The notes beneath the pieces are model-generated. The model saw nothing but the letters and a program-made list of their open reading frames with translations. It was not told where the DNA came from and did not search any database. Position numbers and translations under genes: made by a program. A DNA stretch of 64,000 nt from an uncultured Solirubrobacterales bacterium (GTDB lineage Bacteria; Actinomycetota; Thermoleophilia; Solirubrobacterales; Solirubrobacteraceae), in contig CAVRXP010000002.1 in the NCBI GenBank assembly GCA_963725265.1, forward strand, positions 699,426 to 763,425, in the 5' to 3' direction. How positions within the stretch are numbered: position 1 is the stretch's first letter; each line of letters begins with the position of its first letter. Shown piece by piece: positions 34,241 through 52,416 of the stretch.

Positions 34241-34350
34241 GCTAGGCGCTCAGCTTAAGCCCCAGACTCTGACGCCGCCCCGTCCGCGCCAACCGCCGCG
34301 CGATCCGAGGTCACGCCCGTCGGCGCCAACCGCCGCGCGATCCGCGATCA

Positions 34351-36201
34351 TTGACCCCAGCGTTGAGCACTGTCACGACCCCGCCCATGCCACCGCCTCT
34401 ACCCGATGGCGCCCCTCCGGGATCGCTCCCGCCTGAGCCACCGCGCCGTGGCTGGTGGCTGGCCAGGCGCTTCCTGCTCGCCGCTTTCTGCATAGTCGCG
34501 CTAGCCGGCGCCGCGACCTACATGGTGATCCGCAACGAGGTCGACAAGGTCGTCAGCGCGCTGGGCCAGAACAAGCCGGTGAAGGTCGCGTCGAAAGTGC
34601 TGATCCCCACCAGCACGGGCGAACCAGAGACGCTGCTGCTGGTCGGCAACGACGAACGCAAGGCCCCGAAGGGCAACCCGTCGGGAGCGGTGCTGCCGCA
34701 CTCCAACGAGATGCTGCTCGTGCGCATAGACCCAAGCAAGCCGACGATCTCGATGCTCTCGATCCCGCGCGAGCTGCGCGTCAGCTTCACCGCGCCCAAC
34801 GGCGAAGTCATCACCAACCGCATCAACTCCGCCTACACCTACGGCTACGAGGAGGGCGGTGGCACCTCCGGCGGAGTCAAGCTGATGCTCGAAACGATCA
34901 AAACTTTGCTCGGCATCACCGTCAACCACGTGTTCGTGACCGACTTCAAACGCTTCGAACACGCCGTCGACGAAATGGGCTGCGTGTACATGACGGTGGA
35001 CAAGCGCTACTACCACAGCAACGACGAACCGGGCGCCGAACAGTACTTCGAAATCCACCTGGAGCCTGGCTATCAGCGCCTGTGCGGCCAACAGGCGCTC
35101 GAATTCGTCGCCAACCGCCACGAAAGCACTTCGCTGATCCGCGACGCTCGCGACCAGCGCTTCCTGCTCGACGCCAAGGCGCAGTACGGCCCGGGACTCT
35201 TCGGGAACCGCGAAAAGTTCGAGAAGGTCCTCGGCAAGGCGGTGCAAACCGACCTGCACGGCGAAGAACAGGTGCTCGACCTGCTGGAGCTGCTGGCCGA
35301 ATCGGCCGGCAAGCCGGTGCGCCAGGTCCCGTTCCACGTCAACCTGCTGCCCACCTACGACACGGCGACACCCCAGCAGTTCCAAGAAGCGGCGCACTCC
35401 TTCCTGGCGGGCACGGCGCCGATCCCCAAGCACAAGCTCAACGCCGCGGTGCGCTCCGTCAAGAGCTCGCATCACTCCGCCGAGGCAGCTCTGTCGCTCA
35501 CGCCAACGCCAAGCTCGACGGTCGACCAGGCGTTGGTCGCGGCTCCGCGCCTGCCGTTCCCGCTGGAGGTCCCCCAGTACCAGAAGACAACCGCCGAAGC
35601 CTCCCCAGACGAACTCTTGCTCTACGGCATCCAGAGCCCCAACGGCCGCCACCGCTACCCCTCGTATGTGGTCGTCGTCGACGACGGCGAACTGGGCCAG
35701 TACTACGACATCCAGGGCAGCACGTGGACCGGCCTGCCGCTGCTCAGCGATCCGAGCCAGAGCGTGCGCATCGGCTCGCGCACCTACAGCCTCTACTACG
35801 ACGGCGAACACATCAAGACGGTCGCCTGGAGAGAAGGCCGCGGCGTCTACTGGATCGAAAACACGCTGACCTACAGCCTCTCGCCCGAAACGATGGTGGC
35901 GATTGCCCGCACCACACGCCCCGTCGGCAGCTCGAACTCGACGGTGCCGGCGGTGAGCGCGGCCCCGCACCGCCTGGCGGTCCCCTTGCCCACACCGGGC
36001 GCGACCACTACGGGTAGCAGGGCCAAGATCGAAGCCGCGATCGCCTTGCTCAGCCTCGTGATCGTGGCATTGCTGGCCCTGCGCCTGCTCTACCGCCAAC
36101 GCGAGCTCAAAGCGCTACGCGCGCAGGTCGCGGAGGCGATGGCGCTGGAAGCCCGTCGCGCCACGCGCCTGCGCGCCCGCGTCGGCGCACGCTCCAAATA
36201 G
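34351..36201 (+). CDS. LytR-CpsA-Psr (LCP) family protein, divergent
   Basis: LLVGND, SIPRE, RINSAY, PGYQRLCG; N- and C-terminal TMs. Confidence 0.88.
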   Translation: MTPALSTVTTPPMPPPLPDGAPPGSLPPEPPRRGWWLARRFLLAAFCIVALAGAATYMVIRNEVDKVVSALGQNKPVKVASKVLIPTSTGEPETLLLVGNDERKAPKGNPSGAVLPHSNEMLLVRIDPSKPTISMLSIPRELRVSFTAPNGEVITNRINSAYTYGYEEGGGTSGGVKLMLETIKTLLGITVNHVFVTDFKRFEHAVDEMGCVYMTVDKRYYHSNDEPGAEQYFEIHLEPGYQRLCGQQALEFVANRHESTSLIRDARDQRFLLDAKAQYGPGLFGNREKFEKVLGKAVQTDLHGEEQVLDLLELLAESAGKPVRQVPFHVNLLPTYDTATPQQFQEAAHSFLAGTAPIPKHKLNAAVRSVKSSHHSAEAALSLTPTPSSTVDQALVAAPRLPFPLEVPQYQKTTAEASPDELLLYGIQSPNGRHRYPSYVVVVDDGELGQYYDIQGSTWTGLPLLSDPSQSVRIGSRTYSLYYDGEHIKTVAWREGRGVYWIENTLTYSLSPETMVAIARTTRPVGSSNSTVPAVSAAPHRLAVPLPTPGATTTGSRAKIEAAIALLSLVIVALLALRLLYRQRELKALRAQVAEAMALEARRATRLRARVGARSK

Positions 36202-36390
36202 ACGGCCGGCTAGAAGCCAAACAGAAACGTAACAAAGATGGCCGCTCTATATGTATTGTATCGCTATACGGGATTCCGCTCCGGTCGCTCCGGTCATGCC
36301 GGGCTCGTGCCCGAGCTGCAATCAGTGACGTATCGGCGGGAGTCGATACGTGATTGCACCGCAAATGGAAACCAACAAAGGGGCCATAGA

Positions 36391-36636
36391 ATGACCTGCA
36401 GAGTAAGTGCTTTTAGGGATCGTGTAGTGCTCGTAAGCCATCACCCCATCTCGGTCTTCACTACCACGGACGAGCACCTCGACCGCATCGGTAAGAAGCC
36501 CGACGGACACTACGACAGAGAGGCCCTGTTGACCCTGGCCGAGGAGGGCAACGCCGTCGTGTACGACGAGGACGCGGTACGCGCCATCACGCAGGCGATC
36601 GGCCCCCTCATACACGGCTGCCCCCCGGCGGTGTAG
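36391..36636 (+). CDS. Small hypothetical protein
   Basis: AAAGGGG RBS-like sequence; coding-like codon usage in the 3' part. Confidence 0.6.
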   Translation: MTCRVSAFRDRVVLVSHHPISVFTTTDEHLDRIGKKPDGHYDREALLTLAEEGNAVVYDEDAVRAITQAIGPLIHGCPPAV

Positions 36637-36694
36637 AACGACACCGGCGCTTGCCATTCACCCGAGGGGTCGTGCAGGCCCCAGTCTCATAGCC

Positions 36695-38203
36695 TCACAC
36701 CGGAGCAGGCTCGGTTTCCTGGAGGGCGCTGGCGGTGCTCTCGCCGCGGGCCTCCAGGGAGTGTTCGCGGCTGTCGCGTGAGGAGATCAGGATGGCGGCG
36801 AGGATCGCTCCGGCGATCGCGAAGCCCGCGCCGACGAGGAATGCACGGTCGTACCCCTTGGTGAGAGCGACCGATGTGCTGTGGACGCCTGCGTGCAGGA
36901 GACTCTGGGTGCGGCTGTTGGCGACGGTGGCGAGGATCGCAAGGCCGAGCGCGCCGCCGACCTGTTGTGAGGTGTTGATCAGCCCTGAGGCGAGACCGGC
37001 CTCGTGTGGCTTGGTGCCCGTCACCGCTGCGATCGTCACGGGAACGAAGGAAAAGCCGAGCCCCAACGACGCGAGGATCGACGGCCCGAGGACGTCAGCG
37101 GCAAAGGAGCCGCCCGGCGCCCGCACCCGCGAGAACCACAGCAGCGCGGCGGCGATCAAGAGCAGCCCGCCGATCAGTGTGGGCTTGAACCCCACGCGCG
37201 TGACCAGTTGTGAGGCAGCGCCGGCGGAGAGGATGATCCCGATCGCGAGTGGCAAATAGGAGACCCCGGCCTTGATCGGCGAGTAGTGCAGGACGTCTTG
37301 GAGGTAGAGGGAGATGAAGAAGAACATCGAGAACAACGACATCCCGATCAGCAGTCCGACGATGTCGGCGCCGCGGAGCGTGCGCAGTCGGAAGATCGAG
37401 AATGGCAGCAGCGGGTGGCGCTGGCGATGCTCGATCACGACGAACGCGACAAGCAGGATGGCTGCCCCCGCGAGGCGCAACAGCGTGCCGGTCGATCCCC
37501 AGCCCACGTTCACGGCGTCGACGACCGCGTAGACAAGCAGCGCCAGTCCGGCGGTGACGGTCACCGCGCCGGGGATGTCGAAACCTTCGGTGTCGTCTTC
37601 GGCGTGGCTCTCCAGCAGTATCCGCGGCGCGAGCGCGGCGGCGATCAGGCCGATGGGAACGTTGACGAACAGCACCCAGCGCCAGGACAGCCCACTCGTG
37701 AGGATCCCGCCGAGCAGCACGCCGGCCGCGCCGCCGGCGCCCGCGACCGCCCCCCACACGCCGAGCGCACGGTTGCGCTCCGCTCCTTCGGCGAACGTGG
37801 TCGTGATGATCGAGAGCGCCGCCGGCGAGACGATCGCCGCGCCGAGCCCCTGGGTCGCGCGTGCGACGATCAGCCAGGCCTCCGACTGGGCCAGCCCGCC
37901 GGCCAGCGAGGCGAGCGAGAAGAGCACCAGCCCGATCATGAACATGCGTCGGCGGCCGAGCAGGTCGGAGAGGCGCCCCCCAAGCAGCAGGAACCCGCCG
38001 AATGTGAGCGTGTAGGCGTTTACGACCCACGAGAGGTCGTCGCGGGAGAAGTGCAGGTGGGCGCCGATAGAAGGGAGCGCGACGTTGACGATCGACGCGT
38101 CGATGACGATCACGAACTGGGTCATCGCCAGCAGCATCAGCGCGAGGTTCTTCGCGCGGGGCGTGTCGAGCGATGGCGCATGGGGTTGGGCGAACGAACT
38201 CAT
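36695..38203 (-). CDS. DHA2 (14-TM) MFS efflux transporter
   Basis: DASIVNVALP, GGRLSDLLGRR, WRWVLFVNVPIG. Confidence 0.95.
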   Translation of the reverse strand: MSSFAQPHAPSLDTPRAKNLALMLLAMTQFVIVIDASIVNVALPSIGAHLHFSRDDLSWVVNAYTLTFGGFLLLGGRLSDLLGRRRMFMIGLVLFSLASLAGGLAQSEAWLIVARATQGLGAAIVSPAALSIITTTFAEGAERNRALGVWGAVAGAGGAAGVLLGGILTSGLSWRWVLFVNVPIGLIAAALAPRILLESHAEDDTEGFDIPGAVTVTAGLALLVYAVVDAVNVGWGSTGTLLRLAGAAILLVAFVVIEHRQRHPLLPFSIFRLRTLRGADIVGLLIGMSLFSMFFFISLYLQDVLHYSPIKAGVSYLPLAIGIILSAGAASQLVTRVGFKPTLIGGLLLIAAALLWFSRVRAPGGSFAADVLGPSILASLGLGFSFVPVTIAAVTGTKPHEAGLASGLINTSQQVGGALGLAILATVANSRTQSLLHAGVHSTSVALTKGYDRAFLVGAGFAIAGAILAAILISSRDSREHSLEARGESTASALQETEPAPV

Positions 38204-38288
38204 TGGAAGCTGACCTCCGGTTCCGGTTTGCCTTCGCGACTATAGTGAACTATGATTCCGCTTGTCAAGGGAGTTGGGTGAAAACACT

Positions 38289-38930
38289 GTGAACGTCACG
38301 CCAATCGACACCGAGCGCCCGCTGCGCGCCGACGCTCGCCGCAACCGCGCGCGCATCATCGAGGCGGCACGCGAGCTGTTCGCCGGCGAGCAGCCCAATG
38401 TCCAGATGGACGACATCGCCCGTCACGCCGGTGTGGGTGTCGGCACCGTCTACCGGCACTTCCCCGACAAGGAGGCGCTAATGGGAGAGCTCGTGCGCCA
38501 GCGCTTCGAGCTCTTCAACGAGAACCTCCGCCACGCCGTGGCAGACGAGCGCCACGGCGCGTTCGCGGCGCTCGTCGGCGCGCTGCGCGCAAACGTCGCG
38601 TCCGTCGCCGAGGACGCCGCGACCCGCTTCGCGTTCATGAGCGGCGGCGAGCGCGTCTTCGCCCACGCCGCCTCAGAGATGGAGCAGTTCATGCTGCTCG
38701 CCGACGAGCTCGTGGGCCGCGCCCACCGCGCGGGCGAGCTGCGCAAGGACTTCCAGGCAAGCGATATCCCGATGGTCATGTGCGGGATCTGCGCGACGAT
38801 CGGCGCAAACAAGCCGGACTGGGACTGGCAACACCACTTCGACCTAATCCTCCATGGGATGCAGCCGCTGGGGTCACCGCAGAACCAGTTGACGAGCCGG
38901 CCGTCCAATTCGTCCACCAGCAGCGGGTAA
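38289..38930 (+). CDS. TetR regulator divergent from the MFS gene
   Basis: RADARRNR, AGVGVGTVYRHFP. Confidence 0.93.
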   Translation: MNVTPIDTERPLRADARRNRARIIEAARELFAGEQPNVQMDDIARHAGVGVGTVYRHFPDKEALMGELVRQRFELFNENLRHAVADERHGAFAALVGALRANVASVAEDAATRFAFMSGGERVFAHAASEMEQFMLLADELVGRAHRAGELRKDFQASDIPMVMCGICATIGANKPDWDWQHHFDLILHGMQPLGSPQNQLTSRPSNSSTSSG

Positions 38931-39255
38931 GGCCCGGAGCCGATCCCTCGTTACGGAGAGAGACTGGTTCCGGCAAAAATCGCCCCTGAAACGCCCCCAG
39001 GGCCTGCACAAAAACGCCCCTGGGAACGGCGGGACACCTGGTACCCCGCTGACCGAAGACGAACACCTCCCCATCATCGTCGGGCTTGCTCCGATCCAGC
39101 GCGGAACCTGAGCGCCGCCTTGCCATGGCGGCGAACCTGTCTGACCACTTCGGAGAGACACCGGAGAACAAGGACCTACCGAGGTAGTCCCCGGCAAATC
39201 GATTGCTACCAATGCGATGGTTGCAATCGTTGCAGTCAGCTGCTACCGTCGCCCT

Positions 39256-39681
39256 ATGGCAACCTCACCAACGATTTCCCGCACAGATCTGCAGCGGGTG
39301 CTTCCGACCTTCCGTAAGGCCGCCGCGCTCATCGATGTGCATCCTTCGTTCATCAGTCGTGCCGTGCGTGATCTGGGGATCACGCCAGTCGAGTGGGGCC
39401 GGCGCGAGCGCTACCTGCAGATCCCGGACGTGCTGTTGATCGCGACTCATGCCCGGCGCAACGCTGTCGAGGAGGTCGCGGGGGGCTTGGTCGAGCTAGC
39501 CGAGCAGCAAGCCCCGGAGCTTGCGGGATGGGTCACGACAGAAGCAGAGCAATTCCTCGCGGCGCTTCCCGCGCCCGAGCCCGAGGACAGCGACGCCTTC
39601 CTTGCAGAGCTGCGCAGCGAGCTGCCGGGGGAGTGGGCCGATCGCGCAGAGGCGATCTACCGCCGCCATCTGAATGACTAG
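39256..39681 (+). CDS. Hypothetical protein with an N-terminal HTH-like segment
   Basis: FRKAAALIDVHPSFISRA; upstream TGCAA-N3-TTGCA inverted repeat. Confidence 0.7.
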   Translation: MATSPTISRTDLQRVLPTFRKAAALIDVHPSFISRAVRDLGITPVEWGRRERYLQIPDVLLIATHARRNAVEEVAGGLVELAEQQAPELAGWVTTEAEQFLAALPAPEPEDSDAFLAELRSELPGEWADRAEAIYRRHLND

Positions 39682-40294
39682 ACGGGGTGACGCCGCTCGC
39701 GGTATCCCCGGTCAGCCCAGCCACCGTTAGGCTCGCCAACACCGGGCGTGAACCCGAACCCGTCGAGCTCCTCGAGCGTGAGGGCAATCCCCGAGTCCTC
39801 GAGCACGCCGACGCGTCCGTGTGCGACGGTCACCACGTCGATCGCCGACACGACGAGCGTCAGCAGGAGGGCAGCGGTCATGTACTCCCCTCGGAGCTTG
39901 CCCTCGACATCCCCGCGGACACACACTGATGTGATCAGATGCGGGCGGCGGCGCCCCGCCTTCGCCCGCGGCGGCTTGATGCTTGGTCCTCGAAGTGCCA
40001 GGACAGGAAGGCCGCAACGCGGTTCGAGTTGCGCACGTCGACCGCGAGCAGTCGACGCCCCTTCGCAGCGTCGGCACGGTGCCACTCAGACCGAGCCGGC
40101 TCAGGGGCCGGGACACCGATCAGCCTGTGCCGCGGGGTATACAGACGCCAGCGCACCGCGCTCCCGTCGGGGGCACCAACGGACGGCAGGTAGTGGTCCA
40201 GACGGACCCGGGTCTGCGGATCACCGGACCGCAGGGCGTCCGAAACGACCAGCACCGCCGCCAGTCGTCTGATGAGTTCGTCACGGTCAGGCAC
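39678..40294 (-). CDS. Hypothetical protein, frameshifted near 39950
   Basis: ORFs 39935-40294 and 39678-40085 join into one plausible protein. Confidence 0.5.
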
Positions 40295-40453
40295 GACCGT
40301 ACATTCGAGAGGATGCCCTGGACGCTACAGTTCCGGCAGGCCGGCTCCCATGGCAGACGAAAGGTGCCGGGCACAAACGGACGCCCAAGTCATCCTCAGG
40401 GTGCTGAGCCAGTCTCCTCCTTCGGTCCGGCGGCGGTAGGATGCCAGCGCTAG

Positions 40454-40491
40454 GCCGAAGTAGCTCAGCTGGTAGAGCACCGCCATGGTAA
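40454..40491 (+). pseudogene. 5' half of the split tRNA-Thr(GGT) (attL)
   Basis: GCCGAAG-TAGCTCAGCTGGTAGAGCA-CCGCC-ATGGTAA then non-tRNA sequence; TAGGAT -10 box 11 nt upstream. Confidence 0.92.
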
Positions 40492-40603
40492 AGAAGGAGG
40501 CACAAGCAGAAGTCCCAACTTGTGCTCTTCAAAAGAGATCAAGTATCGGTGCCCTCTCTGCGACTGGCTGGCCCTCCGGAGGGAGGTGCCGGAGGATCTC
40601 GCG

Positions 40604-40624
40604 GGGGGCGTTTTGGGGGCGTCA
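40604..40624 (+). repeat. Candidate integrase arm-type sites (left)
   Basis: GGGGGCGTTTT/GGGGGCGTCA, 11-bp period. Confidence 0.65.
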
Positions 40625-40714
40625 GACGTTTCGGCGCGGCCTGAACAGATCGCCTCCGCCGCGTTGTCGCTTGGCGCAGGCGAACGTCGGGTATAGCCTT
40701 CTATAGACATAGAC

Positions 40715-41974
40715 GTGCGCCCGAAGCCAATCCGTGGAGTTGAGATTCGCAAGCGTGGAGGAGGAGGCCGTGAGGTCTACTACGTCTACCGGGTCCGGTT
40801 TCAGAACGCGCGGGGCGAGCGCGCCCAGCGGACGTTCGACACCGCGCAGGACGCCCTGGACTTCCGTGCTCGCCTGCGGCTGCTCAAGCGCACCGGAGAC
40901 CTCGCCGTGCTCGAAGCTGGCAACGAGACGCTCGCGCAGTTCATGGGCGACTTCTGGCGTCTGTATGCCGAGACCCGCCTGGAGAGCAGCACACGCAGGA
41001 AGTACCGCTGCCTGTGGAACGCCCACATCGCGCGGAGGCTCGGTGCGATGCAGCTACGCCAGATCACTCCGCTTGCGCTCAGCGAGTTCATCCTCGAACT
41101 CCAACAGGCCAGGGCGGGCGCGGCCGCGATCCGGAGCTGCCTGGGCCTGCTGCAGAGCATGTTCGCGCGAGCGGTGGAATGGGATAGGGCAAGCGTCAAC
41201 GTGGTCAAGCTGATCACCAAGCCGCGTGCTCCACGCGTACGTGCGATTAAGCCGCTGCGCCCCATCGAAGTCGAGGCGCTGCGCCGTCAGATGCTGCTCA
41301 ATCCCGACCACGGATTGCGGGACGCCACGCTCGTGAGCGTCCTCGCGTATGCCGGTCTGCGCCCCGAGGAGGCCCTCGCCCTGGAATACCGGCATGTGCG
41401 CAAGACGACGGTTCTGGTCGAGCAGAAGTGGATCGACGGAGAGATCGTGCCTGGCCAGAAGACGACTCGCCCTCCGCGGTGTCCGCCATTGCTCGATGTG
41501 CTGCGCGGCGATCTGGGTGAGTACCGGCTGGCGTGCGGCGATCTGGATGGCGTGATCTTCGCACGCCCGGATGGGGCGCCCTGGCGCGATCACGATTGGC
41601 GAGACTGGCGATCGCGTGTCTGGCAGCCGGCGTGCGTGGCGATCGGTATCGCCACCATCACCAAAACCCCCGTCGTGTACGCCGGCAAACGCAGAATCAG
41701 CCGAACCTACGATGGTCCGGTGCCCTACGACCTGCGCCACAGCTTCGCGAGCCTGCTGATCCACGAAGGCAAGCATTCGATCATGCAGATCGCCGAGTGG
41801 ATGGGCCACAGCGCCGCAACCCTGCTCACCCACCACGCACACCTCATCGCCGACGGCGCCGACAGGTGGACTCTGTCGAGCGAGCAAGCAATCAGGGCAG
41901 CCCGCGAAGGCCAGACGCCCCACACAGCCAGCAGCTCGACAGCCGGCAACGCCCACTGCCTCCTAATGCGGTGA
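40715..41974 (+). CDS. Tyrosine recombinase/integrase; expected catalytic Tyr appears as His
   Basis: AYAGLRPEEALAL, YDLRHSFAS, WMGHS...THHAH. Confidence 0.93.
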   Translation: MRPKPIRGVEIRKRGGGGREVYYVYRVRFQNARGERAQRTFDTAQDALDFRARLRLLKRTGDLAVLEAGNETLAQFMGDFWRLYAETRLESSTRRKYRCLWNAHIARRLGAMQLRQITPLALSEFILELQQARAGAAAIRSCLGLLQSMFARAVEWDRASVNVVKLITKPRAPRVRAIKPLRPIEVEALRRQMLLNPDHGLRDATLVSVLAYAGLRPEEALALEYRHVRKTTVLVEQKWIDGEIVPGQKTTRPPRCPPLLDVLRGDLGEYRLACGDLDGVIFARPDGAPWRDHDWRDWRSRVWQPACVAIGIATITKTPVVYAGKRRISRTYDGPVPYDLRHSFASLLIHEGKHSIMQIAEWMGHSAATLLTHHAHLIADGADRWTLSSEQAIRAAREGQTPHTASSSTAGNAHCLLMR

Positions 41975-42138
41975 AGTGTCTCCTAGCACGACCGTCACGA
42001 ACTCGCAGTTATACGTTTTTATCCGCGAGTATCCGGTTTTCCGGATAGAACCAGACGTCTTCCGTTGCGATATCGCGCGTGGGCACGGCGATATCTTCGC
42101 CCTCCACGGCCAGTGGTATTACTTGCTAGTCTTACCGT

Positions 42139-42354
42139 ATGAGGGTCACGCAGAAGGGTCAGGTCACGATTCCGCTGCAGGTGCGGCGGGCGCTCGGCAT
42201 CGGTCCGGGCAGCGATGTGGACTTTGAGCTCGACGACCACGGCGCGCGGCTGCTCGTCGATTCCTACCGGGCCGCCGAGGAGATCAGCCATATGCGTGGC
42301 GCCGGCGAAGGCGAGATGAGCACTGAGGAGATCCTCGCCCTGACTCGCCGGTGA
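42139..42354 (+). CDS. vapB: AbrB/MazE-type antitoxin
   Basis: MRVTQKGQVTIP; leaderless TAGTCT-N6-ATG promoter. Confidence 0.92.
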   Translation: MRVTQKGQVTIPLQVRRALGIGPGSDVDFELDDHGARLLVDSYRAAEEISHMRGAGEGEMSTEEILALTRR

Positions 42355-42364
42355 GCGGCTGAGC

Positions 42365-42763
42365 TTGGAGACGTTCGTCGACAGCAGCGTCCTGCTTGAC
42401 CTCTTCACTGAGGACCCACGCTGGCTGTCCTGGTCGCAAGAGCAGCTCACGCAGGCGGCCCAGCGAGGCGCGCTCGTCCTCAACGCCGTCGTGCTTGCCG
42501 AGATCGCCCCTAGGTTCCCGCGCATCGAGACGCTGCGCTCGGCGTTGCCCTCGATGGCGGTCATCGAGGACATCCCGCCGCCGGCGGCATTCCTTGCCGG
42601 GCACGCCCACGCCAACTACCGCCGCGCGGGAGGAACGCGTGAGGCCGTACTTCCGGACTTCCTGATCGGCGCACACGCCGCCTTGACTAGGCGGTCGCTG
42701 CTTACTCGCGACCCGCGCCGCGTAGCCGCCTACATTCCCGGCGCCACGCTCATCGCCCCGTAG
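42365..42763 (+). CDS. vapC: PIN-domain toxin
   Basis: FVDSSVLLD, AE, LPDFLIGAHA, LLTRD. Confidence 0.93.
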   Translation: METFVDSSVLLDLFTEDPRWLSWSQEQLTQAAQRGALVLNAVVLAEIAPRFPRIETLRSALPSMAVIEDIPPPAAFLAGHAHANYRRAGGTREAVLPDFLIGAHAALTRRSLLTRDPRRVAAYIPGATLIAP

Positions 42764-42790
42764 TATTGGCAAGACTTACAGTGTGCCTGG

Positions 42791-43980
42791 ATGTCGGACA
42801 CCGATCTACTTAGCCAGCTCTGCACGCCTGACGAGCGCACACTGGCACATTCGCCACTTGGTCTCGGAGGACGACTGCTGCCAGAGGATGCGGCTCGGTT
42901 TCAAGCAGCGGCGATCGAGCAGGCGCAGCTAGCCAAAATCGTCCCGGAGGGAATCCGCAACTACTTTGAGCGTATCCGCAAGCTGCATTTACACGGTGTG
43001 CTTGAGTACGAGTTCTTCTTTGCGGCGCACGATCTACGGCTGCTCGCCATCGAGGCAGCGCTTCGCGTGCGCTTCGTCGAACACTACTCCGGGCGCATCC
43101 CGATTATCGCCAAGGGACGAAAGGTCTCAAACGCACCCGCCGTGATGCCCGCCGTGACCACGAAGGGCGCTGCGGCGACGCTTCTGGCACGCAATTTCGA
43201 TGACGTTTGGCACGCCGCGCCTTACTGGCATCTCGGGCCGCTTCCATGGTGCGAGACGACGCGACTACCGACCGGACTTGAGGCGCTGCTTGCTTGGGCC
43301 AGACGGGAAGGGCTGCTACCGGGTAGGCGCACCCGATTTGTCGATCAGGCGCTCGTCAAACTCCGCAATTGGGCTGCACATCCCACCGACTACACACTAG
43401 TAGGGCCACCTGAGTCAGCAGGCGGCTTGCAGCATGCTGCAGAACTGATCAACAAGCTCTGGGGAATCGATACACCGAACGGTCACTTGTTCCCTCCTCC
43501 CGTCTACCGCGAACCACGTGTAGCCGCAATCGCCGCCGATGGTAAAGCTGCAAGCACGATGCGTCTTGACCAAGTCGCTGGCGTTGAGGCCAAGGAGAAG
43601 GATTACGAGTTCGCTGTCTTCCTCGCGGCTCCGCATGAGCAGCTCACACGGCGCGGCGCAGAGATTAGGTTCGCCTATCGCGACGGAGTGCAGACAACCC
43701 AATTCCCATGCAGGCAGCTCTTCAGAGGCAATTGGCTGAGCTTCTCAAGCAGATCGAGGGCGGAGTCTTCGAGGACGTTGCCGACTCGATCGAGTTCCTA
43801 GACAGGCTTTTTCTTATTCGCATCCTCACCGATCAAGACGGCGTAGACGACGCTCGCTCGCCAGAGGACGTACTCGCACTCTCAGAGCCACTGGAAGGCA
43901 ATTGGCTAGCGATCATTGCTGACTCTCCCTTTGACGCCCGTACGCACGCTGTCCTACACCGCATGGTTGATCTGCTTGAA
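42791..43980 (+). pseudogene. HEPN-motif hypothetical protein, frameshifted (~43740) and apparently truncated
   Basis: LAIEAALR...LRNWAAHP; continues in another frame as ELLKQIEGG...LDRLFLIR. Confidence 0.65.
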
Positions 43981-44437
43981 GACCTCTCCTTGAGCGGCTG
44001 CTGCCGCTGCGCGGCCAATACGCCGAGGACGAGCGCAAGCTCACGTTCGTCGGCGAGGCACGCCGCCTGTTCGATCCTCTCAATGTCATCGTCTGCCCGA
44101 GTTGCCTGCAGAACCTGCCGGAGCCTCCGCGCATCGAGGACTCCGGCTGCACCCTCTGCGGCCAGGAGCTGCTCAAGGACCCAGACTCGGGCTTTGACGT
44201 TGATGCCGAGCGCCGCGCGACAAGCGAGCGCATGCGCGACCTCGACCGCTACATCGACGAGGTTCAGGAGGAGGTCCGATTGGTTGCAGAGACCGTGGCC
44301 GAGACCAGGTTCGCGGAGCAGCGAATCGAAGCCGAGCTCGACAGTCGCGTAGCGAGTGACCTCAGCCCATTTGTGCACGACCGCGAGATCCTGATCGCTG
44401 GCCGCGAGCAGCTGCAGGCCCGGGACGCCGCCCTAGA

Positions 44438-45494
44438 TGACCTGCCCACGGACTTAGTAAACGCCTGAAGGGCTGTCCGGCCCCCGACGGAAGGTGCGGT
44501 TACCACAACTGCATCTCTCGAGGGAGGCCGGACATGGAAGACCGTAGGTGCAAGCTCGGACTGGCTGGGCGTCTGGAGCTGGTGAGGCTGATCGAGCAGG
44601 GTTCCTCGCTGCGAGCGGCGGCGCGTGCGTTGGGGGTCGCACCGGCGACTGCACACCGCTGGTGGCATCGTTGGCAGGCGGCATCAGAGGAGCAGCGCTA
44701 CTCGCGGGAGGCTCTTCAGACTCGTCGGCCGGTGCCTCATAGTTGTCCTTGGGCGCTGAGCGCGGAGCAGGAACAGAAGATCCTCGGCGCGCGTGAGAAG
44801 ACCAACTGGGGCCCGATGCGCCTGACCTATCTGACGGGCTCGCATCGCTCGACGATCTGGAAGGTGCTGGCTCGCCACGGCTGCTCGCGCAGACGCCGAT
44901 CCACCCAGCGTGAGAGCTCTCGCCGCTATGAGTGGTCAGAAGCCGGGGCGTTGCTGCACATCGATGCCTTCCAGGTCCCGAAGTTCTCGGTTCCTGGACA
45001 CTGGGCAACTGGGCAACGCGCAGAGCGACACAAGACGCGTCGGGCCGGCAAGACCGTCGTGATCGGCGTGATCGATGACCACACTCGCTTGGCCTATTGC
45101 GAGCTGCACAGCGCTGAGAACGCGATCAACGTCTCGGTGACCCTGGCTCGCGCTGCTGCCTGGTTCATCGAGCAGGGCTGCGGGCCGGTGCAGGCGGTGA
45201 TGTCTGACAATGCCAAGTGCTACTCGCAGAGCATCGCTTTCCGGCAGACACTTACGACTCTCGGTGCTCGCCACATCCTGATCCCGCCATACACGCCCCG
45301 CTGGAACGGGAAGGTTGAGCGCTTCTTCGGCACGCTCAACACGGAGTGGGCGCATGGGCGCGTTTGGCCCAGCAGCGACAAGCGGGATCGCGCCCTGTCA
45401 TCGTTTATACGCTTCTACAACCGCAGGCGACCACACTCAGCCGCCAGCGGCCGAGCACCCATCAGCCGCGTTCAGCAGGTCCGTGGGCAGGACA
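44438..45494 (+). mobile_element. IS481-family insertion sequence, 1057 bp
   Basis: IRs TG(A/T)CCTGCCCACGGAC...; 6-bp TSD CCTAGA at 44432-44437 and 45495-45500. Confidence 0.95.
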
Positions 45495-45499
45495 CCTAG
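44534..45499 (+). CDS. IS481-family DDE transposase
   Basis: LLHID, IDDHTR, MSDNA, PYTPRWNGKVERF, YNRRRPHS; stop codon supplied by the TSD. Confidence 0.95.
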   Translation: MEDRRCKLGLAGRLELVRLIEQGSSLRAAARALGVAPATAHRWWHRWQAASEEQRYSREALQTRRPVPHSCPWALSAEQEQKILGAREKTNWGPMRLTYLTGSHRSTIWKVLARHGCSRRRRSTQRESSRRYEWSEAGALLHIDAFQVPKFSVPGHWATGQRAERHKTRRAGKTVVIGVIDDHTRLAYCELHSAENAINVSVTLARAAAWFIEQGCGPVQAVMSDNAKCYSQSIAFRQTLTTLGARHILIPPYTPRWNGKVERFFGTLNTEWAHGRVWPSSDKRDRALSSFIRFYNRRRPHSAASGRAPISRVQQVRGQDT

Positions 45500-46213
45500 A
45501 CCAAGCGGTCGCGTCACACGAGGCGCTCGAGCGCCGCAAGACAGACCTGAACACGCTCGAGGCGCGGCAGCAGGTGCTCCGCAAGGAGCTGGATGAGCGG
45601 CGCAAGAACCGGCCGGAGAAGGAGCAAGTCGTCGCAGACCTCGGCGAGCACTTCGCCAATCTGCTGCGCGCCTGGGGATTCCCCAAGGTCGATGAGGACG
45701 GTGCTCCACGACTGGACGAGGACTTCGTGCCGTGGGTGCACGGCAGGCCTTACCGGGAGGTTGGCTCCTCGGGCGCCCTGACCCTGATTGCGGTCGCCTG
45801 GCAGCTGACGATCTTCGAGTGCGCCGTCGAGGAGGGGCGGCCGCACCCGGGTTTCCTCGTCATCGACAGCCCGCAGAAGAACCTCTCTCCCGACGCTGTC
45901 GGCGACACAGACTTCCTGGACCCGAAGATCGTCGAGAGTATGTGGAGCCACATGGCGAGATGGTGCAAGAACCATCCGCAGGCCCAGCTCATTGTCGTCG
46001 ACAACACTCCACCGGCCCTAGTCAGCGACCATGTGGTCGTCCGATTCAGCCGTGATCCTTCGCTACCGCCCTACGGCTTGATCAGCGATGAGACCGGCTA
46101 GAGACTGTGTCCTCCGCCCATCCAATCGCGGAGAGAAGCGCCCCAAGAACCGCAGAAAAAGCCCAAGCTTTTCAGGAGCGTGCAAAAGCGCTCGGTTATG
46201 CGGTTTTGAGGCA

Positions 46214-46286
46214 AGCCGACGCCCGGTCTCGAACCGGGGACCTCCTGCTTACCATGCAGGTGCTCTACCTACTGAGCTACGTCGGC
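46214..46286 (-). tRNA. tRNA-Thr(GGT), intact, inside the element
   Basis: Full cloverleaf: GCCGACG/CGTCGGC, CCTGC-ATGGTAA-GCAGG, CCCGG-TTCGAGA-CCGGG. Confidence 0.96.
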
Positions 46287-46368
46287 GCGGATCGCCAATC
46301 CTAGCGTTCCTGGGGCCGAGGAGCTAGGATCGAGCCCGAACTTGACCACCCGAGACTCCCCGTCTTGC

Positions 46369-46412
46369 TGGGGGTGTTTTGGAGGCTTCCTGGGGGACGC
46401 TGGGGGTGTTTT
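46369..46412 (+). repeat. Candidate integrase arm-type sites (right)
   Basis: TGGGGGTGTTT-like units at 46369, 46380, 46391, 46401. Confidence 0.65.
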
Positions 46413-46503
46413 ACTCCCGCCAAACAGTCCCCCGGAGTCCTTCCAAGCCCCGAAAAACCGGACAGGACGGGACCTCGCGCGACCAGGAGGCTCCCTTGCG
46501 AAA

Positions 46504-46547
46504 CCATGGTAAGGCGGAGGTCTCGGGTTCGATTCCCGACGTCGGCT
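46504..46547 (+). pseudogene. 3' half of the split tRNA-Thr(GGT) (attR)
   Basis: CCATGGTAA-GGCGG-AGGTC-TCGGG-TTCGATT-CCCGA-CGTCGGCT. Confidence 0.92.
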
Positions 46548-46780
46548 CTTATGATCGGGTTGCGCGCTGGAGGCATGAGATGCCGTCAAGGAGCGCGAAT
46601 GCGGGCAGCGGCGACGCGCGAGCTCCGGGCGCTCGTGCGGATCCTCGCGCGCCCCGGCTGTGGGCGCCCGCTCGGCCTCCGGCGTGCCCGCTTTAGCCAT
46701 CGCCGGCGGCGGCCCGCAGGTGGGCGCCCGGGGCCGGCGCTGCCGCGGCGCTCGGCGAGCGTTCTCGATACCTTGAGCAT

Positions 46781-48277
46781 ATGGATACTTCGGATATCGC
46801 AATGGACCACGAGGTCGTCGTGATCGGTGCGGGCTTTTCGGGTATCGGGGCGGCGATCAAGCTCGACCAAGCCGGCTTCCGCGACTTCGTCGTGCTCGAG
46901 GCCGGGGACGGTGTCGGGGGCGCCTGGCATTGGAACACCTACCCGGGGATAGCGGTCGACATCCCGTCCTTCAGCTACCAGTTCTCCTTCGAGAAGCGCA
47001 GCGACTGGTCGCGCGTGTACGCACCGGGGACGGAGCTCAAGGCCTACGCGGAGCACTGCGTGGACAAGTACGGGGTGCGCGATCGCATCCAGCTGAACAC
47101 CAAGGTGGTCGGGGCGAGGTTCGACGAGGACGCCCACGCGTGGCGCATCCAGACCGCGGACGGCGAGCAGATCATCGCGCGATACGTGGTTGGCGCGACA
47201 GGCGTGTTCAGCCAGCCAACACCGCCCGAGATCGAGGGCCTCGACTCCTTCGCCGGCACGACCATGCACACGGCGCGCTGGGATCACTCGGTCGAGTTGC
47301 GCGGCAAGCGCGTCGGGGTGATCGGCACGGGTGCCTCGGCGATCCAGCTCATCCCCGCGATCGCCCCTGAAGTCGAGCAGGTCACCGTCTTCCAACGCAC
47401 TCCCATTTGGTGCCTACCCAAGCTCGACGCGCCGATGAGCCCGCGCGTGCGCCGAGCACTGCGTTCGGTGCCCGGCGCCGAGCTCGCCACACGCTGGGCC
47501 AGTCAGGCCTTTGTGGAGCTCACCTTCGTGCTCGCCGCCCACTTCGCCCGCCAGTTCCCGAGTCTCACTGCCCGCGGTGAAGCCACCGCTCGGAAGATGC
47601 TCCGCGAGGTCAAGGATCCCGTCGTGCGCGAGAAGCTCACGCCTAAGTACTCCCTCGGGTGCAAGCGCCCGAGCTTCTCCAATGAGTACATCCCAGTCTT
47701 CAACCGGGAGAACGTGCTGCTCGAAACCACCTCCATTGAGGCGATCACCGAGACGGGCGTTCGTATGAGCGACGGGGTCGAGCATCCTCTTGACGTGCTC
47801 GTCCTTGCAACCGGGTTCAAGGTGTTCGACTCGGGGAACCTGCCGGCATTCGAGATGCTGGGCGCGGGTGGTGTCGACCTCGAGGAGTGGTGGGATGCCA
47901 ACCGGCTGCAGGCCTATGAGGGCGTGAGCGTCCCCGGCTTTCCGAACTCCTTCTCGATCCTCGGACCCTACGCGTTCAACGGCCAGTCCTACTTCGGTCT
48001 GATCGAGACCCAGATGCGCCACATCGTGCGCTGCCTGAAGCGGGCGCGCAGCGAAGGCGCCACGCGCGTGGAGATCACGCCCGAGGCCAACCGTCGCTAT
48101 TTCGAATCGATGCTCGGGCGCCGCCACAACCAGGTCTTCTTCCGGGGCGCCTGCTCGAACGCGAACAGCTACTACTTCGACAAGCACGGCGACGCGCCGT
48201 TCCGGGCCAGCCTCTCGCTCGAGGCGGCCTGGCGCAGCGCCCGCTTCGACCTCGACGACTACGCGTTCGCACGATGA
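46781..48277 (+). CDS. Baeyer-Villiger-type flavin monooxygenase
   Basis: GAGFSG, NTYPG...D, FAGTTMHTARW, GTGASA, GCKR. Confidence 0.95.
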   Translation: MDTSDIAMDHEVVVIGAGFSGIGAAIKLDQAGFRDFVVLEAGDGVGGAWHWNTYPGIAVDIPSFSYQFSFEKRSDWSRVYAPGTELKAYAEHCVDKYGVRDRIQLNTKVVGARFDEDAHAWRIQTADGEQIIARYVVGATGVFSQPTPPEIEGLDSFAGTTMHTARWDHSVELRGKRVGVIGTGASAIQLIPAIAPEVEQVTVFQRTPIWCLPKLDAPMSPRVRRALRSVPGAELATRWASQAFVELTFVLAAHFARQFPSLTARGEATARKMLREVKDPVVREKLTPKYSLGCKRPSFSNEYIPVFNRENVLLETTSIEAITETGVRMSDGVEHPLDVLVLATGFKVFDSGNLPAFEMLGAGGVDLEEWWDANRLQAYEGVSVPGFPNSFSILGPYAFNGQSYFGLIETQMRHIVRCLKRARSEGATRVEITPEANRRYFESMLGRRHNQVFFRGACSNANSYYFDKHGDAPFRASLSLEAAWRSARFDLDDYAFAR

Positions 48278-48353
48278 CCAAGCCCGACCTTCCCGGGTCG
48301 GACTGGGTCGAGCTCTTGCGCGTGCTCGCCGGATCGACCCTCGCGGGTGCCCG

Positions 48354-49517
48354 ATGAAGGCCGTGAACTGTAAAGAAGGCCAGTTGACGGTCGTCGATCT
48401 GCCGACGCCTGCCCCTGAGGAGGGGCAGGTATTGATCGATGTCCTTCGCTGTGGCATCTGCGGATCGGACCTTCATGCTCGCCATCACTGCAACGAGATG
48501 GCAGACGTGGCTCTGGAGACCGGCTATGCAGACTTCATGCGCTCCGACCAGGACGTCGTCATGGGGCACGAGTTCTGCGGTGAGATCGTCGAACACGGCC
48601 CCTCCTGCCGGCGGTCGGTGCCGACGGGGACGACGGTGGTCTCGTTGCCTCTGCTGCGTGTCGGAAAGGACGTCCACGCCACCGGTCTGTCGGTGGCGGC
48701 TCCCGGTGCCTACGCGGAGCAGATGCTCGTACAGGAGTCTCTTACCGTTCCCGTGCCCAATGGCCTCGCGCCAGGAGTCGCCGTGCTGACCGAGCCGATG
48801 GCTGTCGGCTGGCACGCTGTACGCCGAGGTGAGGTCAAGAAGCGCACCGTCGCGGTCGTCATCGGCTGCGGGCCGATCGGCCTGTCGGTGATCTGCATGC
48901 TCAAGGCACACGGTGTGCGCACCGTGATCGCGAGCGACTTCTCCGCGGGGCGTCGCGCGTTGGCGAGAGCATGCGGCGCTGACGTCGTCGTCGACCCAGC
49001 ACACGAATCGCCCCACGCTTCAGCCGAGAAGCACGGGCACCTCACCGCGGTTCCCGCCGCCCTCGATCTAGCGGTTGACGGTATGGGCAAGATGCAGCGG
49101 CTTCCGATTCCCTGGCATCACACCTGGCGCGCGGCCGAAGCGCTCGGCCTGGCCAAGCCCAAGAGCCCCGTGATCTTTGAATGCGTGGGCGTGCCCGGGG
49201 TGCTCGACCAGGTGATCGCGAGTGCGCCTCTGTTCTCCCGCGTGGTCGTCGTGGGCGTGTGTATGGGTACGGACAAGATCAGGCCGGCAATGGCGATCAA
49301 CAAGGAAATCGAGCTGCGCTTCGTCCTCGGTTACACCCCCATCGAGTTCCGCGACACGCTTCACATGCTCGCCGAGGGAAAGGTGAACCCCGGTCCTCTC
49401 CTCACCGCCACCGTGGGACTCGACGGCGTCGAGAAGGCATTCGAGGCGCTCGGAGATCCCGAGACCCACGCGAAGATCCTGGTCGACCCAAAGAGCACCG
49501 CCGCCGCGGTGATGTAG
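48354..49517 (+). CDS. Zinc-binding (MDR) dehydrogenase
   Basis: CGICGSDLH, GHEFCG, GCGPIG. Confidence 0.93.
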   Translation: MKAVNCKEGQLTVVDLPTPAPEEGQVLIDVLRCGICGSDLHARHHCNEMADVALETGYADFMRSDQDVVMGHEFCGEIVEHGPSCRRSVPTGTTVVSLPLLRVGKDVHATGLSVAAPGAYAEQMLVQESLTVPVPNGLAPGVAVLTEPMAVGWHAVRRGEVKKRTVAVVIGCGPIGLSVICMLKAHGVRTVIASDFSAGRRALARACGADVVVDPAHESPHASAEKHGHLTAVPAALDLAVDGMGKMQRLPIPWHHTWRAAEALGLAKPKSPVIFECVGVPGVLDQVIASAPLFSRVVVVGVCMGTDKIRPAMAINKEIELRFVLGYTPIEFRDTLHMLAEGKVNPGPLLTATVGLDGVEKAFEALGDPETHAKILVDPKSTAAAVM

Positions 49518-49617
49518 TCGTCCATCCACGCGCGAGCGTGGCGGGCAGTCGGGAACGCGCGGCTGCACTCCCGCTTGTCGTGGTCCATTGCGTCTGCTTT
49601 CGTTATGGTCCGGTGCC

Positions 49618-50922
49618 GTGCCGCACGATCCTGTCGAGCTGTTGCGCCAGCTGATCCGGTTCGACACAACCAATCCACCTGGCAACGAGGCTCAGTGCAT
49701 CGGGTGGATCAAGGATCTCTGCGACCAAGCTGGCCTGCTGACGAGAATCTTGGCCAAGGACGCGGCACGGCCGAACCTGCTGGCGCGACTGCCCGGTCGG
49801 GGTGTCGCGCCGCCGCTGCTTCTCCAGGGTCACGTCGACGTGGTCACGACACACGGCCAGAGCTGGCGCCACGATCCGTTCGGCGGCGAGCTGATCGAAG
49901 GCGAGATTTGGGGTCGGGGCGCTCTGGACATGAAGGGCGGTGTGGCGATGATGCTCGGGGCGATCCTGCGGCTCGCGGAGGCCGCTGAGCCTCCACCGGG
50001 CGACGTGCTGTTGTGCGTGCTCGCGGACGAGGAGAATCTGGGACCGTACGGCGCACGCTTTGTAGTTGAGGAGCACCCCGAGCTCTTCAAGGGCGTCAAG
50101 CACGCGCTCGGTGAGTTTGGTGGCGCGCGCACCGAGATGGCGGGTCTGGCCGCTTACCCGATCCAGGTGGGCGAGAAGCAGGTGTGCTGGTCGCGCGCAA
50201 CCATCCGCGGGCCCGGCGGCCACGGTTCGATCCCGATGCGCGGCGGTGCGATGGCGAAGCTTGCCCGGTTGCTGAGCGCACTGGATTCGCGGCGACTTCC
50301 GGTGCACGTCACCGAGATTCCACGGTTGATGATCGAGACGGTGGCAGCCGCGCTACCCGCCGGCGGGCGAGAGCTTGCCGATGGGCTGCTCGACCCCGAG
50401 CGCACCGACGCGACACTCGACATGATCGGCGAGGCGGGCCAGACGCTCGATCCGATGTTCCACAACACGGTCAACGTCACTGTCGTGCGAGGCGGCAAAA
50501 AGGTCAACGTGATCCCGAGTGAGTTGCAGCTCGAGCTCGACGGGCGTCTGCTTCCTGGGCAAACCGCGGAGGACCTCTTCCGCGAGCTGCGTGAGCTTGC
50601 CGACGGCGAAGACCTCGAGCTGGAGGCAATGAACTATGAGCCGGTGTCCGATCGAGTGGACCTGTCCCTGATGGGGCTGCTGAGCGACGTGCTCACCGCC
50701 GCCGACCCCGACGCGGTGCCGTTGCCGATGCTCACGCCAGGTCTCACCGACGGTCGGTTCTTTGCCCGGCTCGGAATCCAGACCTACGGTTTTCTACCGA
50801 TGCGCCTTCCGGCGGAGATGAAGTTCACGAGCCTCATTCATGCGGCGGACGAGCGCGTACCAGCGCAGGAGATCGGCTGGGGCACTGACCGCATCTGCGA
50901 GGTGCTGACGCGATACAGGTAG
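49618..50922 (+). CDS. M20/M25/M40 metallopeptidase
   Basis: GHVDVV, GRGALDMKG, DEE, HAADE. Confidence 0.93.
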   Translation: MPHDPVELLRQLIRFDTTNPPGNEAQCIGWIKDLCDQAGLLTRILAKDAARPNLLARLPGRGVAPPLLLQGHVDVVTTHGQSWRHDPFGGELIEGEIWGRGALDMKGGVAMMLGAILRLAEAAEPPPGDVLLCVLADEENLGPYGARFVVEEHPELFKGVKHALGEFGGARTEMAGLAAYPIQVGEKQVCWSRATIRGPGGHGSIPMRGGAMAKLARLLSALDSRRLPVHVTEIPRLMIETVAAALPAGGRELADGLLDPERTDATLDMIGEAGQTLDPMFHNTVNVTVVRGGKKVNVIPSELQLELDGRLLPGQTAEDLFRELRELADGEDLELEAMNYEPVSDRVDLSLMGLLSDVLTAADPDAVPLPMLTPGLTDGRFFARLGIQTYGFLPMRLPAEMKFTSLIHAADERVPAQEIGWGTDRICEVLTRYR

Positions 50923-50968
50923 CTAACGCTACCGCGGGGCTGCTTGGCCGCACGCACCATCGTTGCTG

Positions 50969-51283
50969 CTACATCTGACCAGGCGAATCCGTGTCGGTCT
51001 CGCTGCTGCGCTCATGGTCGGCGTCGCCGTCCGTGCGTCCGTCGTCCTCCTCGCTGGGCGCCCGATCGTGCAGGATCGCATGGGCGGACTGCGAGTCTCC
51101 GTGTGATGCGTGTTCGATCAGCAGCATCTCGGCCTGCTCGAAGCCCTCGGACTCGCCGCTGCCAGCCTCGTCGAGGGGTGCCGTGGCGGGGTCCGCTGGT
51201 GGGCGGCCGTCGCCGCCGCCGATGCGGGCCGCTTCGCTTGCGGCGCTCTCGGTCTCCCGCTGCTCATAGCGTGAGTCGCTCAT
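50969..51283 (-). CDS. Small acidic hypothetical protein
   Basis: EAARIGG...EAGSGESEGFEQAE; coding-like. Confidence 0.7.
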   Translation of the reverse strand: MSDSRYEQRETESAASEAARIGGGDGRPPADPATAPLDEAGSGESEGFEQAEMLLIEHASHGDSQSAHAILHDRAPSEEDDGRTDGDADHERSSETDTDSPGQM

Positions 51284-51417
51284 TTCACACCGCCGCCGTG
51301 ACCGTCGTCGCCCGCGGTTTTATGGGGGATAGGCGCAAGCATTGCTTTCTTCTCTACCCGCGCCCCCGAATGGGAAACCAGGTCCTCACGACGAGTCGAG
51401 CAGGAGGTCGCTGCTAA

Positions 51418-51576
51418 GAGCGCCTATCAAAATGCGTGTACGTCTGTGACGGCCGTTGGCCTTCGCGGAGCTGTGTCCTCGGGGCTCGACTTGGCACCAC
51501 CAAGCCTTCGCCCCTGCGTCCTTGCTCCGCTCGACCCTCGACCGCCCCAGCCGCACCCGCATTTTGATAGGCGCTC
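51418..51576. mobile_element. 159-bp MITE, IS5-like ends
   Basis: Perfect 19-bp TIR GAGCGCCTATCAAAATGCG, TAA direct repeats on both sides, no transposase. Confidence 0.85.
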
Positions 51577-51850
51577 TAAGGGCCTGTGAAGCGAATCTCG
51601 GCTTCCATAGCCTTGTATGTGGGAAGCGCTCGTTGGTCGGCGCTCAAGCCGTATGAGTTCCAGCGACGCGCACCGGCTCCATTGCGTTGGGCGCCAGTGA
51701 GCGAACGTGCGTTCGTAAATACCGTCCGGATTGCTGGGTAGCTTTGTCGGCGTCTACGAAAGGGCGGGCTCGGCGGCCGGGTAGGTGGTGGCGGTCGGGG
51801 CCTCGGCGTAAAGGAGGGCCGTACGAATGAGCGGACGCGGTAGCTGCGTC

Positions 51851-52078: not shown

Positions 52079-52097
52079 GATCGGCAGCGGGAAAGCG

Positions 52098-52316: not shown

Positions 52317-52416
52317 AGACGACACTGTCGCGGGCCGCAGACGGAAGGTCTACAGACGAAAGTCGGCGTATGGTCTGGTCACAGCGGCGAACCGTCGCGG
52401 CGAACGGTTATGGTCG

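Follow-up and report, generated by a model that had tools for sequence, protein, structure and literature searches.

The split tRNA-Thr(GGT) gene and the island between its halves

The window analysed here is a stretch of 64,000 nucleotides from an uncultured Solirubrobacterales bacterium of soil (assembly GCA_963725265.1, contig CAVRXP010000002.1, positions 699,426 to 763,425). The genome that holds it, G000, is a 3.48-Mb assembly of 75.8% completeness. The window contains a tyrosine-integrase island at 40483-46512 (6021 bp from core to core), which lies within a tRNA-Thr(GGT) gene and splits it. The 5′ half of this gene, at 40454-40491 (+), forms attL, and the 3′ half, at 46504-46547 (+), forms attR together with the right core. 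Both halves contain the 9-bp core CCATGGTAA, at 40483-40491 and 46504-46512; this 9-mer has four copies in 6.95 Mb (both strands), and two of them are these cores. An earlier note on the same sequence had described two halves with a common core and a perfect stem, and their rejoining in silico indeed yields a tRNA-Thr(ggt) in ARAGORN with the stem CCGCC/GGCGG, and with an A6:G67 mismatch in the acceptor.

No tRNA is found at attL or attR alone by ARAGORN, Rfam or folding, in agreement with the same note. Since attL runs on into non-tRNA sequence, the arrangement departs from canonical restoration, in which attP supplies the 3′ part of the tRNA. An intact tRNA-Thr(GGT) gene with the stem CCTGC/GCAGG is located inside the island at 46214-46286 (-), inverted and 217 nt from the right core, close to the 220 bp first estimated (Rfam, 69 bits; minimum free energy of the cloverleaf, z = -3.9). 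This gene and a tRNA-Tyr are the only tRNAs that Rfam detects over 36000-54000. The broken and the intact gene both have the motif TAGGAT 11 nt upstream, exactly as had been noticed, at 40437-40442 (+) and 46298-46303 (-), respectively. Because a sigma-70 scan of 46050-46700 found no promoter, these motifs are predicted as likely -10 boxes from their position and conservation. A candidate arm-type integrase site with a GGGG(T/C)GTTTT repeat (family D6) is found at 40601-40614 (+), and two likely arm-type sites form the right arm at 46367-46412 (+), an arm kept in eight genomes. Across these genomes the right-end module, composed of the inverted full tRNA, the arms, the core and the 3′ half, can be aligned with 79% column identity, and 8 nt of the 9-bp core are invariant at the eight attR sites.

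As the overall account, we regard it as highly probable that this non-restoring island carries an intact Thr(GGT) gene on which the host likely survives, and that it is likely the latest of several, each of which broke the replacement gene of its predecessor. Misassembly or a chimera in the metagenome-assembled genome would be a trivial explanation of the split. Likely single-base indel errors are present at 39984 (within the open reading frame (ORF) 39935-40294), 40603 and 42360; no contig covers the whole element, and one short-read contig from X1 (46323-46547) crosses attR and then enters a different flank. Both junctions are nevertheless covered by short-read contigs, as this one bridges attR and an X4 contig (40399-40661) bridges attL; moreover, the same architecture recurs in many genomes and metagenome contigs, which makes such an artefact extremely improbable.

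The integrase gene, at 40715-41974 (+), encodes a protein of 419 aa with profile matches in Pfam (Phage_int_SAM_3 and Phage_integrase), PHROG (phrog_1) and PDB. Its predicted catalytic Tyr374, which corresponds in alignments to the C-terminal Tyr region of solved recombinases, is replaced by His (codon at 41834); Tyr is present in 17 of the 18 rows of the alignment of the integrase family described below as class A. Likewise, the 5′ half has A at tRNA position 6, where C occurs in 126 of 128 GCCGA-starting matches (not de-duplicated). Both changes resemble decay and could be assembly errors. The X4 contigs over the two sites have one unlisted mismatch each, which fits assembly error or strain difference alike.

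The remaining cargo is not that of a phage. A VapBC-like pair is encoded at 42139-42763 (+), with a MazE/AbrB antitoxin (42139-42354) and a PIN protein (42365-42763), both from Pfam. One or more ORFs at 42791-43979 (+), probably frameshifted, have no match in Pfam, NCBIfam, PADLOC or PHROG. Next, at 43980-46101 (+), lies a Lamassu LmuB-like ATPase gene, present as its C-terminal half in two pieces (PADLOC PDLC03862, positions 297-442 and 470-642 of 643) and interrupted by an IS481-family element at 44433-45499 (+), which scores over the cut-off of NF033577 and has terminal inverted repeats; one X4 short-read contig lacks this element. A Lamassu system is defined by a full-length LmuB with an LmuA effector. 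Here only the IS481-split C-terminal half of LmuB is found, and the ORFs upstream of the remnant have no PADLOC match. Among the eight ORFs of the element and two of its flanks, no phage structural gene was detected with PHROGs, the matches being limited to integrase, antitoxin and unknown-function families; the description of an element of about 6 kb without visible phage genes thus stands. No close viral homologue of the integrase was found (best identity 39% in IMG/VR and below 30% in GenBank phages).

Class A and class B integrases

The integrase of the window belongs to a family here called class A, and the split architecture recurs with it. Thirty-eight class A loci, which are not independent of one another, were examined, and 37 of them have an integrase of at least 52% identity. 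Upstream of these lies an orphan 5′ half in 19, the association of integrase and split tRNA that the earlier note had suggested searching for; 8 have the loop core only, 5 have nothing and 3 have no room. The other two were flagged with an inverted 3′ half, which is real in L503, while L506 in fact has a 5′ half. An intact same-strand tRNA at the attL position occurs at none of the 37 loci. G019 and G106 give direct examples of nesting, each with a class A island inside the replacement tRNA of another. At L108, L104, L094 and L106, orphan tRNA halves are stacked about 200 bp apart, with CTAG-containing arms, and are read from this arrangement as scars of several successive islands.

More distant homologues show the classical behaviour: 45 of 67 have an adjoining intact tRNA and were labelled restoring, and the remaining 22 were excluded from the integrase tree. 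In this tree class A, with 18 rows, is a clade (98 in the Shimodaira-Hasegawa-like approximate likelihood ratio test, SH-aLRT) nested within restoring relatives, and its sister group consists of restoring Thr(GGT) integrases (support 99); the tree comes from a quick search and carries long-branch warnings at its root. Because of this nested position, the non-restoring behaviour was likely derived within the class A clade. The canonical restoring islands, found in Thermoleophilia and other Actinomycetota with Thr, Ile, Val and Ala targets, belong to the same integrase family at 33-50% identity and often use the same tRNA target; the sister group (L166/L171) targets Thr(GGT), as here. In these islands an intact tRNA adjoins the integrase, and several also have a duplicate of the 3′ half, whereas this is not the case in the class A clade.

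The replacement genes were also compared with their targets. A rule by which the replacement always alters its stem and so escapes self-targeting was rejected, since G011, G123 and G019 each have the same stem in target and replacement. At L091:16001 and L099:13640, the island Thr(GGT) has G for A at loop position 32; the integrase core is changed by this substitution, which might shield those genes from the next insertion.

A second integrase lineage, class B, is a divergent tyrosine recombinase. Its CTAG arms had raised the option of a serine integrase, which was discarded because the protein aligns with class A over 374 columns (probability 99.5) and matches phrog_1. Class B integrases are present in 57 of 151 genus genomes and in one of 201 genomes of a family-wide sample, that one in this genus; none was found in viral contigs. 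Their loci adjoin halves of Thr(GGT), Thr(CGT), Thr(TGT) and Lys genes, and an intact Gly gene in three cases. In eight of the twenty loci that were extended, an orphan 5′ half is accompanied by a full GCCGAC-type tRNA with an identical anticodon (CGT in five, TGT in two and GGT in one), so that the anticodon matches the target in 8/8 scorable islands; these full genes were read from the sequence by eye, and five were confirmed separately. The others end at a contig edge (2), are possibly restoring (3), have an intact Gly gene (1) or show nothing by pattern (6). At L480, L481 and L369-L371, class B integrases lie at Lys(CTT) and Gly(CCC) genes with apparently intact targets, and the family may mix restoring and non-restoring members.

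The origin of the island tRNA body was approached through distances that leave out the anticodon arm and the D loop. The 31 distinct island Thr(GGT) sequences differ on average by 4.4 bases from host Thr(CGT), with four identical, and by 11.1 bases from an ancestral Thr(GGT). These distances suggest that the mobile body was likely recruited from tRNA-Thr(CGT). Against this, the native Thr(GGT) of genus g10 is about equally close (4.8 bases), and a capture from that genus would account for the body as well. Island genes have eight paired variants of the anticodon stem, compared with three in the ancestral GCCC type, and among the 31 sequences 30 anticodon stems and all 31 T stems are fully Watson-Crick paired. 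Competition among islands for the site may lie behind this variety of anticodon stems that nonetheless stay paired.

Two pairs of near-identical integrases, L502/L503 (95.7% identical) and L348/L349, are found in opposite orientation to the target. The junctions of both pairs are consistent with crossover at the palindromic CATG, and these two cases suggest that integration is orientation-free.

Probable displacement of the ancestral tRNA-Thr(GGT) in the genus

Thr(GGT) genes of two types are distinguished by their first bases, GCCC (ancestral) and GCCGAC (island-borne). The GCCC type sits after an XRE gene near tRNA-Tyr in relatives; it occupies 30 of 30 family loci examined in other genera and 18 of 22 order-level loci, the rest of which have the GCCGAC type (two, in genus g10), another type (one) or no tRNA (one). 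Most GCCG-type copies have TAGGAT or TACGAT upstream and GCCC-type copies mostly other hexamers (not de-duplicated), a distribution by which the shared TAGGAT box appears as a mark of the island-borne tRNA lineage. Both copies in the window are of the GCCGAC type. The XRE gene (52098-52316), its neighbours and tRNA-Tyr form a synteny anchor at 52098-53386 (-), and although the ancestral site is assembled in the window, the ancestral Thr(GGT) after XRE is absent.

The search covered 101 genomes, 84 of which matched the Thr(GGT) arm pattern; the state table (n = 84) comprises 83 of them plus G015, after removal of G003 with its degenerate copy. The ancestral type only is found in 26 genomes, and one (G014) has it along with an island-type locus. 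Another 32 (G075 being a variant) have the island type alone, their fetched stretches being free of halves; the island type is joined by orphan halves in 22, and 3 have halves only, although a full copy was seen in the extended locus of G109. Some of these last 25 genomes have islands nested in each other's replacement tRNAs. The ancestral type lies on the strand of the anchor in 24 of 24 scorable genomes, at 36-2318 nt, whereas the lone island type lies on the opposite strand in 20, on the same strand in 2 and is unscorable in 10. The unpublished genome G064 is among the 32 and the 20 and is a tip of the tree; a further unpublished genome, G177, contributes to a single tally, and neither of the two is the sole basis of any claim. 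From these states, about two thirds of the sampled relatives have likely lost the original gene through islands. G135 illustrates the step, since both ancestral halves flank a class A island that carries the island-type tRNA, and the right-end modules of G069 and G027 contain a 3′ half of the ancestral type.

The broken gene of the window has a different surrounding. Its promoter region and upstream sequence at 39184-40453, which includes the ORFs 39217-39681 (+) and 39935-40294 (-), both without family match, appear to be remnant cargo of an older class B island: the segment 39184-40491 is 87.7% identical over 1311 nt to G086, where the counterpart lies inside a class B island adjoining an intact Thr(GGT), and G027 and G087 match too. 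The broken gene is therefore likely the leftover of an earlier island and not the ancestral gene of the host. The earlier note had held that the island broke the host's own Thr(GGT); the split with a replacement of the same anticodon stands, and the ancestral status of the broken gene does not agree with the class B cargo upstream of it. That note had also asked for a relative with an uninterrupted gene. G032 has a single intact Thr(GGT), contiguous, inverted and of the island type, between homologues of window 32242-36187 and 51703-54556; it has none of the 15.5 kb of the window between these (36.2-51.7 kb), and the gene there has about 2.1 kb of other DNA next to it. In G112 and G033, which belong to the clade of G000 (support 100), broken ancestral halves are still found at the anchor.

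Taken together, these loci point to a likely succession from the ancestral GCCC gene to an inverted island-type gene (as in G032), then to a class B tRNA (as in G086) and finally to the present class A tRNA. Several observations weigh against this history or the order of its steps. The intact gene of G086 differs from the 3′ half in the window in the variable loop and the T arm, and the flanking halves of G082 and G019 are not complementary; on this evidence the halves can stem from different genes, and with shuffled halves the order of events at this locus is a reconstruction. G000 retains neither a class B integrase nor an att site of that class. For the genus as a whole, the rpoB tree has low support at its deep nodes (46-78) and is built on a gene linked to the locus. 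The 3′ half of the window together with 170 nt downstream is shared with G079, and a search near 36200-36480 turned up neither a relic of the ancestral gene nor an older att site.

A simpler history would have a single event, in which the gene broken by the island was the host's own ancestral Thr(GGT) and GCCGAC is a native allele in part of the genus. It would account for the GCCGAC-type gene that G055 of genus g10 carries on the strand of tRNA-Tyr, 11 nt behind it, and for the 32 genomes with this type and no nearby halves, one of which (G066) has it at the ancestral place and strand. The states also cluster phylogenetically: on the rpoB tree of 68 labelled genomes (16 ancestral and 52 island), Fitch parsimony gives 9 changes, compared with a shuffled mean of 14.5 and minimum of 10. 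Under irreversible loss there are 11 events, or 7 when nodes below 95 are collapsed. A native allele agrees poorly with the class B cargo upstream of the broken gene, with the broken ancestral halves in the clade of G000, and with the inversion of the lone GCCGAC type in 20 of 22 genomes at variable distances from the anchor. In addition, the supported sister pairs G074/G030 (100) and G070/G095 (96) differ in state. We consider a single event improbable and retain the succession of islands.

Other parts of the window flanks also vary among relatives. The MFS/TetR block at 36692-38945 is 92% identical in G091, inverted relative to its flanks, and abuts the 3′ end of a Thr(GGT). The repeats GGGGCGTTT at 38990-39030 (-) resemble integrase arm sites, have no match in the fetched loci and are possibly a remnant of an older island. 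The monooxygenase and dehydrogenase genes at 46717-48587 recur at 95-96% identity in five further species of the genus, with no adjoining tRNA half, which suggests a recent transfer of this segment; the monooxygenase gene was consequently rejected as a synteny anchor for the right flank.

Supply of tRNA-Thr(GGT) and relation to known elements

The earlier note had called for a count of Thr(GGT) genes, and the intact gene at 46214-46286 is the only one found in the 75.8%-complete assembly by ARAGORN, by Rfam (44 tRNAs over the cut-off) and by a stem-loop scan. ARAGORN with introns at a low threshold returned 605 calls, mostly spurious, and was not used. The codons ACC and ACT make up 8527 of the 18481 Thr codons (46%) in long ORFs. 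The host likely depends on the island-borne gene for its tRNA-Thr(GGT).

The opposing explanation is that the island tRNA is dispensable, either because a second Thr(GGT) is unassembled or because tRNA-Thr(UGU) reads all four Thr codons. The assembly is incomplete and short of Phe(GAA), Lys(CTT), Ile(GAT) and Arg(CCT), so a further Thr(GGT) copy is possible; Thr(TGT) and Thr(CGT) genes are present. Redundancy also occurs in the genus, given that G014 has an intact ancestral gene and an island-type locus on another contig, and that G092 and G033 carry two intact copies. Most relatives have, on the other hand, exactly one match to the arm pattern, the assembled ancestral site of the window is empty, and the variable but paired stems of the replacement genes fit selection for function. 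According to a review (PMC5372741), reading a third position other than A generally requires that cytosolic U34 tRNAs be modified; neither there nor elsewhere in the literature searched was Thr-specific evidence on U34 decoding found. Dispensability is in our view unlikely, and dependence of the host on the island remains the preferred reading.

In the mechanism that we propose, the integrase would have recombined an attP with loop homology only into the resident Thr(GGT). The island tRNA would then have become the sole reader of ACC/ACU, so that the island, or at least its tRNA, could be lost only by exact excision. As the replacement tRNA has the same loop, it would become the target of the next island. 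Islands nest, their old bodies decay and the tRNA remains, often inverted, a course that is seen in relatives and would have been followed at this locus as well; the mobile body, recruited from Thr(CGT), would take an anticodon that follows the target. A broader scheme, a ratchet driven by selfish elements, may equally well hold or fail. Here two integrase lineages would share a Thr(CGT)-derived chassis with its anticodon reset to GGT, CGT or TGT; the ancestral Thr(GGT) would have been displaced at least seven times, each new gene serving as the next landing site and being left as a host gene after decay. The integrases, no longer bound to restore the target, would recombine at CATG either way and so flip the gene.

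The closest precedent is the tRNA-dependent lysogeny of actinobacteriophages (Fionnbharth/K4, Cluster L, Gaia, BrutonGaster and Mollymur), in which, according to the available text of PMC10865867, Lys, Ile2 and Leu tRNAs are concerned; the earlier note's statement on non-restoring integration with a same-isotype tRNA in such phages is borne out there. The likeness includes a tyrosine integrase, likely arm-type sites, a core of about 9 bp located within a tRNA gene, the absence of a tRNA from both attL and attR, and a same-isotype tRNA on the element. Unlike those phages, the element is a 6-kb defence and toxin-antitoxin island without virion genes or a close viral homologue; the targets are Thr(GGT) here and Thr(CGT)/Thr(TGT) for class B, and natural nesting and a lasting loss of the ancestral gene are seen in this genus. 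The island thus works like tRNA-dependent lysogeny without being a member of it, as it is not a temperate phage. The authors of PMC10865867 speculate, in the text available, on tandem integration into the tRNA of the element and on a very short overlap region, and they leave the evolutionary direction open; the word 'island' does not occur in that paper. The integrase tree presented here points to an origin from restoring elements.

Two Sinorhizobium meliloti prophages that disrupt tRNA-Leu and carry a similar gene are described in PMC11476347 and PMC12429752. The accessible parts of PMC11476347 state that Lo5R7ANS-like prophages integrate in the central part of tRNA-Leu(UAG), disrupt the gene and carry a functionally similar tRNA, and its authors note the substitution of the host tRNA by a foreign one. 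These two cases are intact prophages, and the parts consulted describe no serial replacement or lineage-wide loss. No paper was found on serial or nested replacement of tRNAs by islands, or on such elements in Solirubrobacterales, in a search that covered subscription literature thinly. Judging from the available text of PMC10865867, the basic design of a split gene with a spare is already published for phages, and what is new is the serial, genus-wide displacement of the ancestral gene and the tracking of the anticodon.

If correct, the succession of islands would extend tRNA-dependent lysogeny from phages to islands, would show tandem integration in nature and would give, for one clade, a direction from restoring to non-restoring. 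A core single-copy tRNA, usually deemed vertical and stable, would be repeatedly destroyed and resupplied by mobile elements; most of a genus would run on a mobile-derived copy, and the islands would have an addiction mechanism without a toxin. Island finders keyed to an intact tRNA and a 3′ duplicate likely miss such elements.

Other unusual tRNA genes are present in G000. Divergent Leu(TAA), Asp(GTC) and Val(GAC) genes are located at C1:1672947, C2:1177578 and C2:1067497, respectively, and possibly mobile ORFs lie near the Leu(TAA) gene. Outside the window, a tRNA-Glu(TTC)-like gene at C2:119335-119431 (Rfam, 68 bits) has a hairpin of about 22 nt in its D loop; its 3′ half is repeated 32 kb away at C2:151499-151589, beside an ORF of 433 aa, and the pair looks like an ordinary restoring island. 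Finally, two long-arm tRNA-like genes at C2:214066-214155 (+) and 1647304-1647394 (-), called by ARAGORN and not by the Rfam tRNA model, presumably resemble allo-tRNA or selC-like genes.

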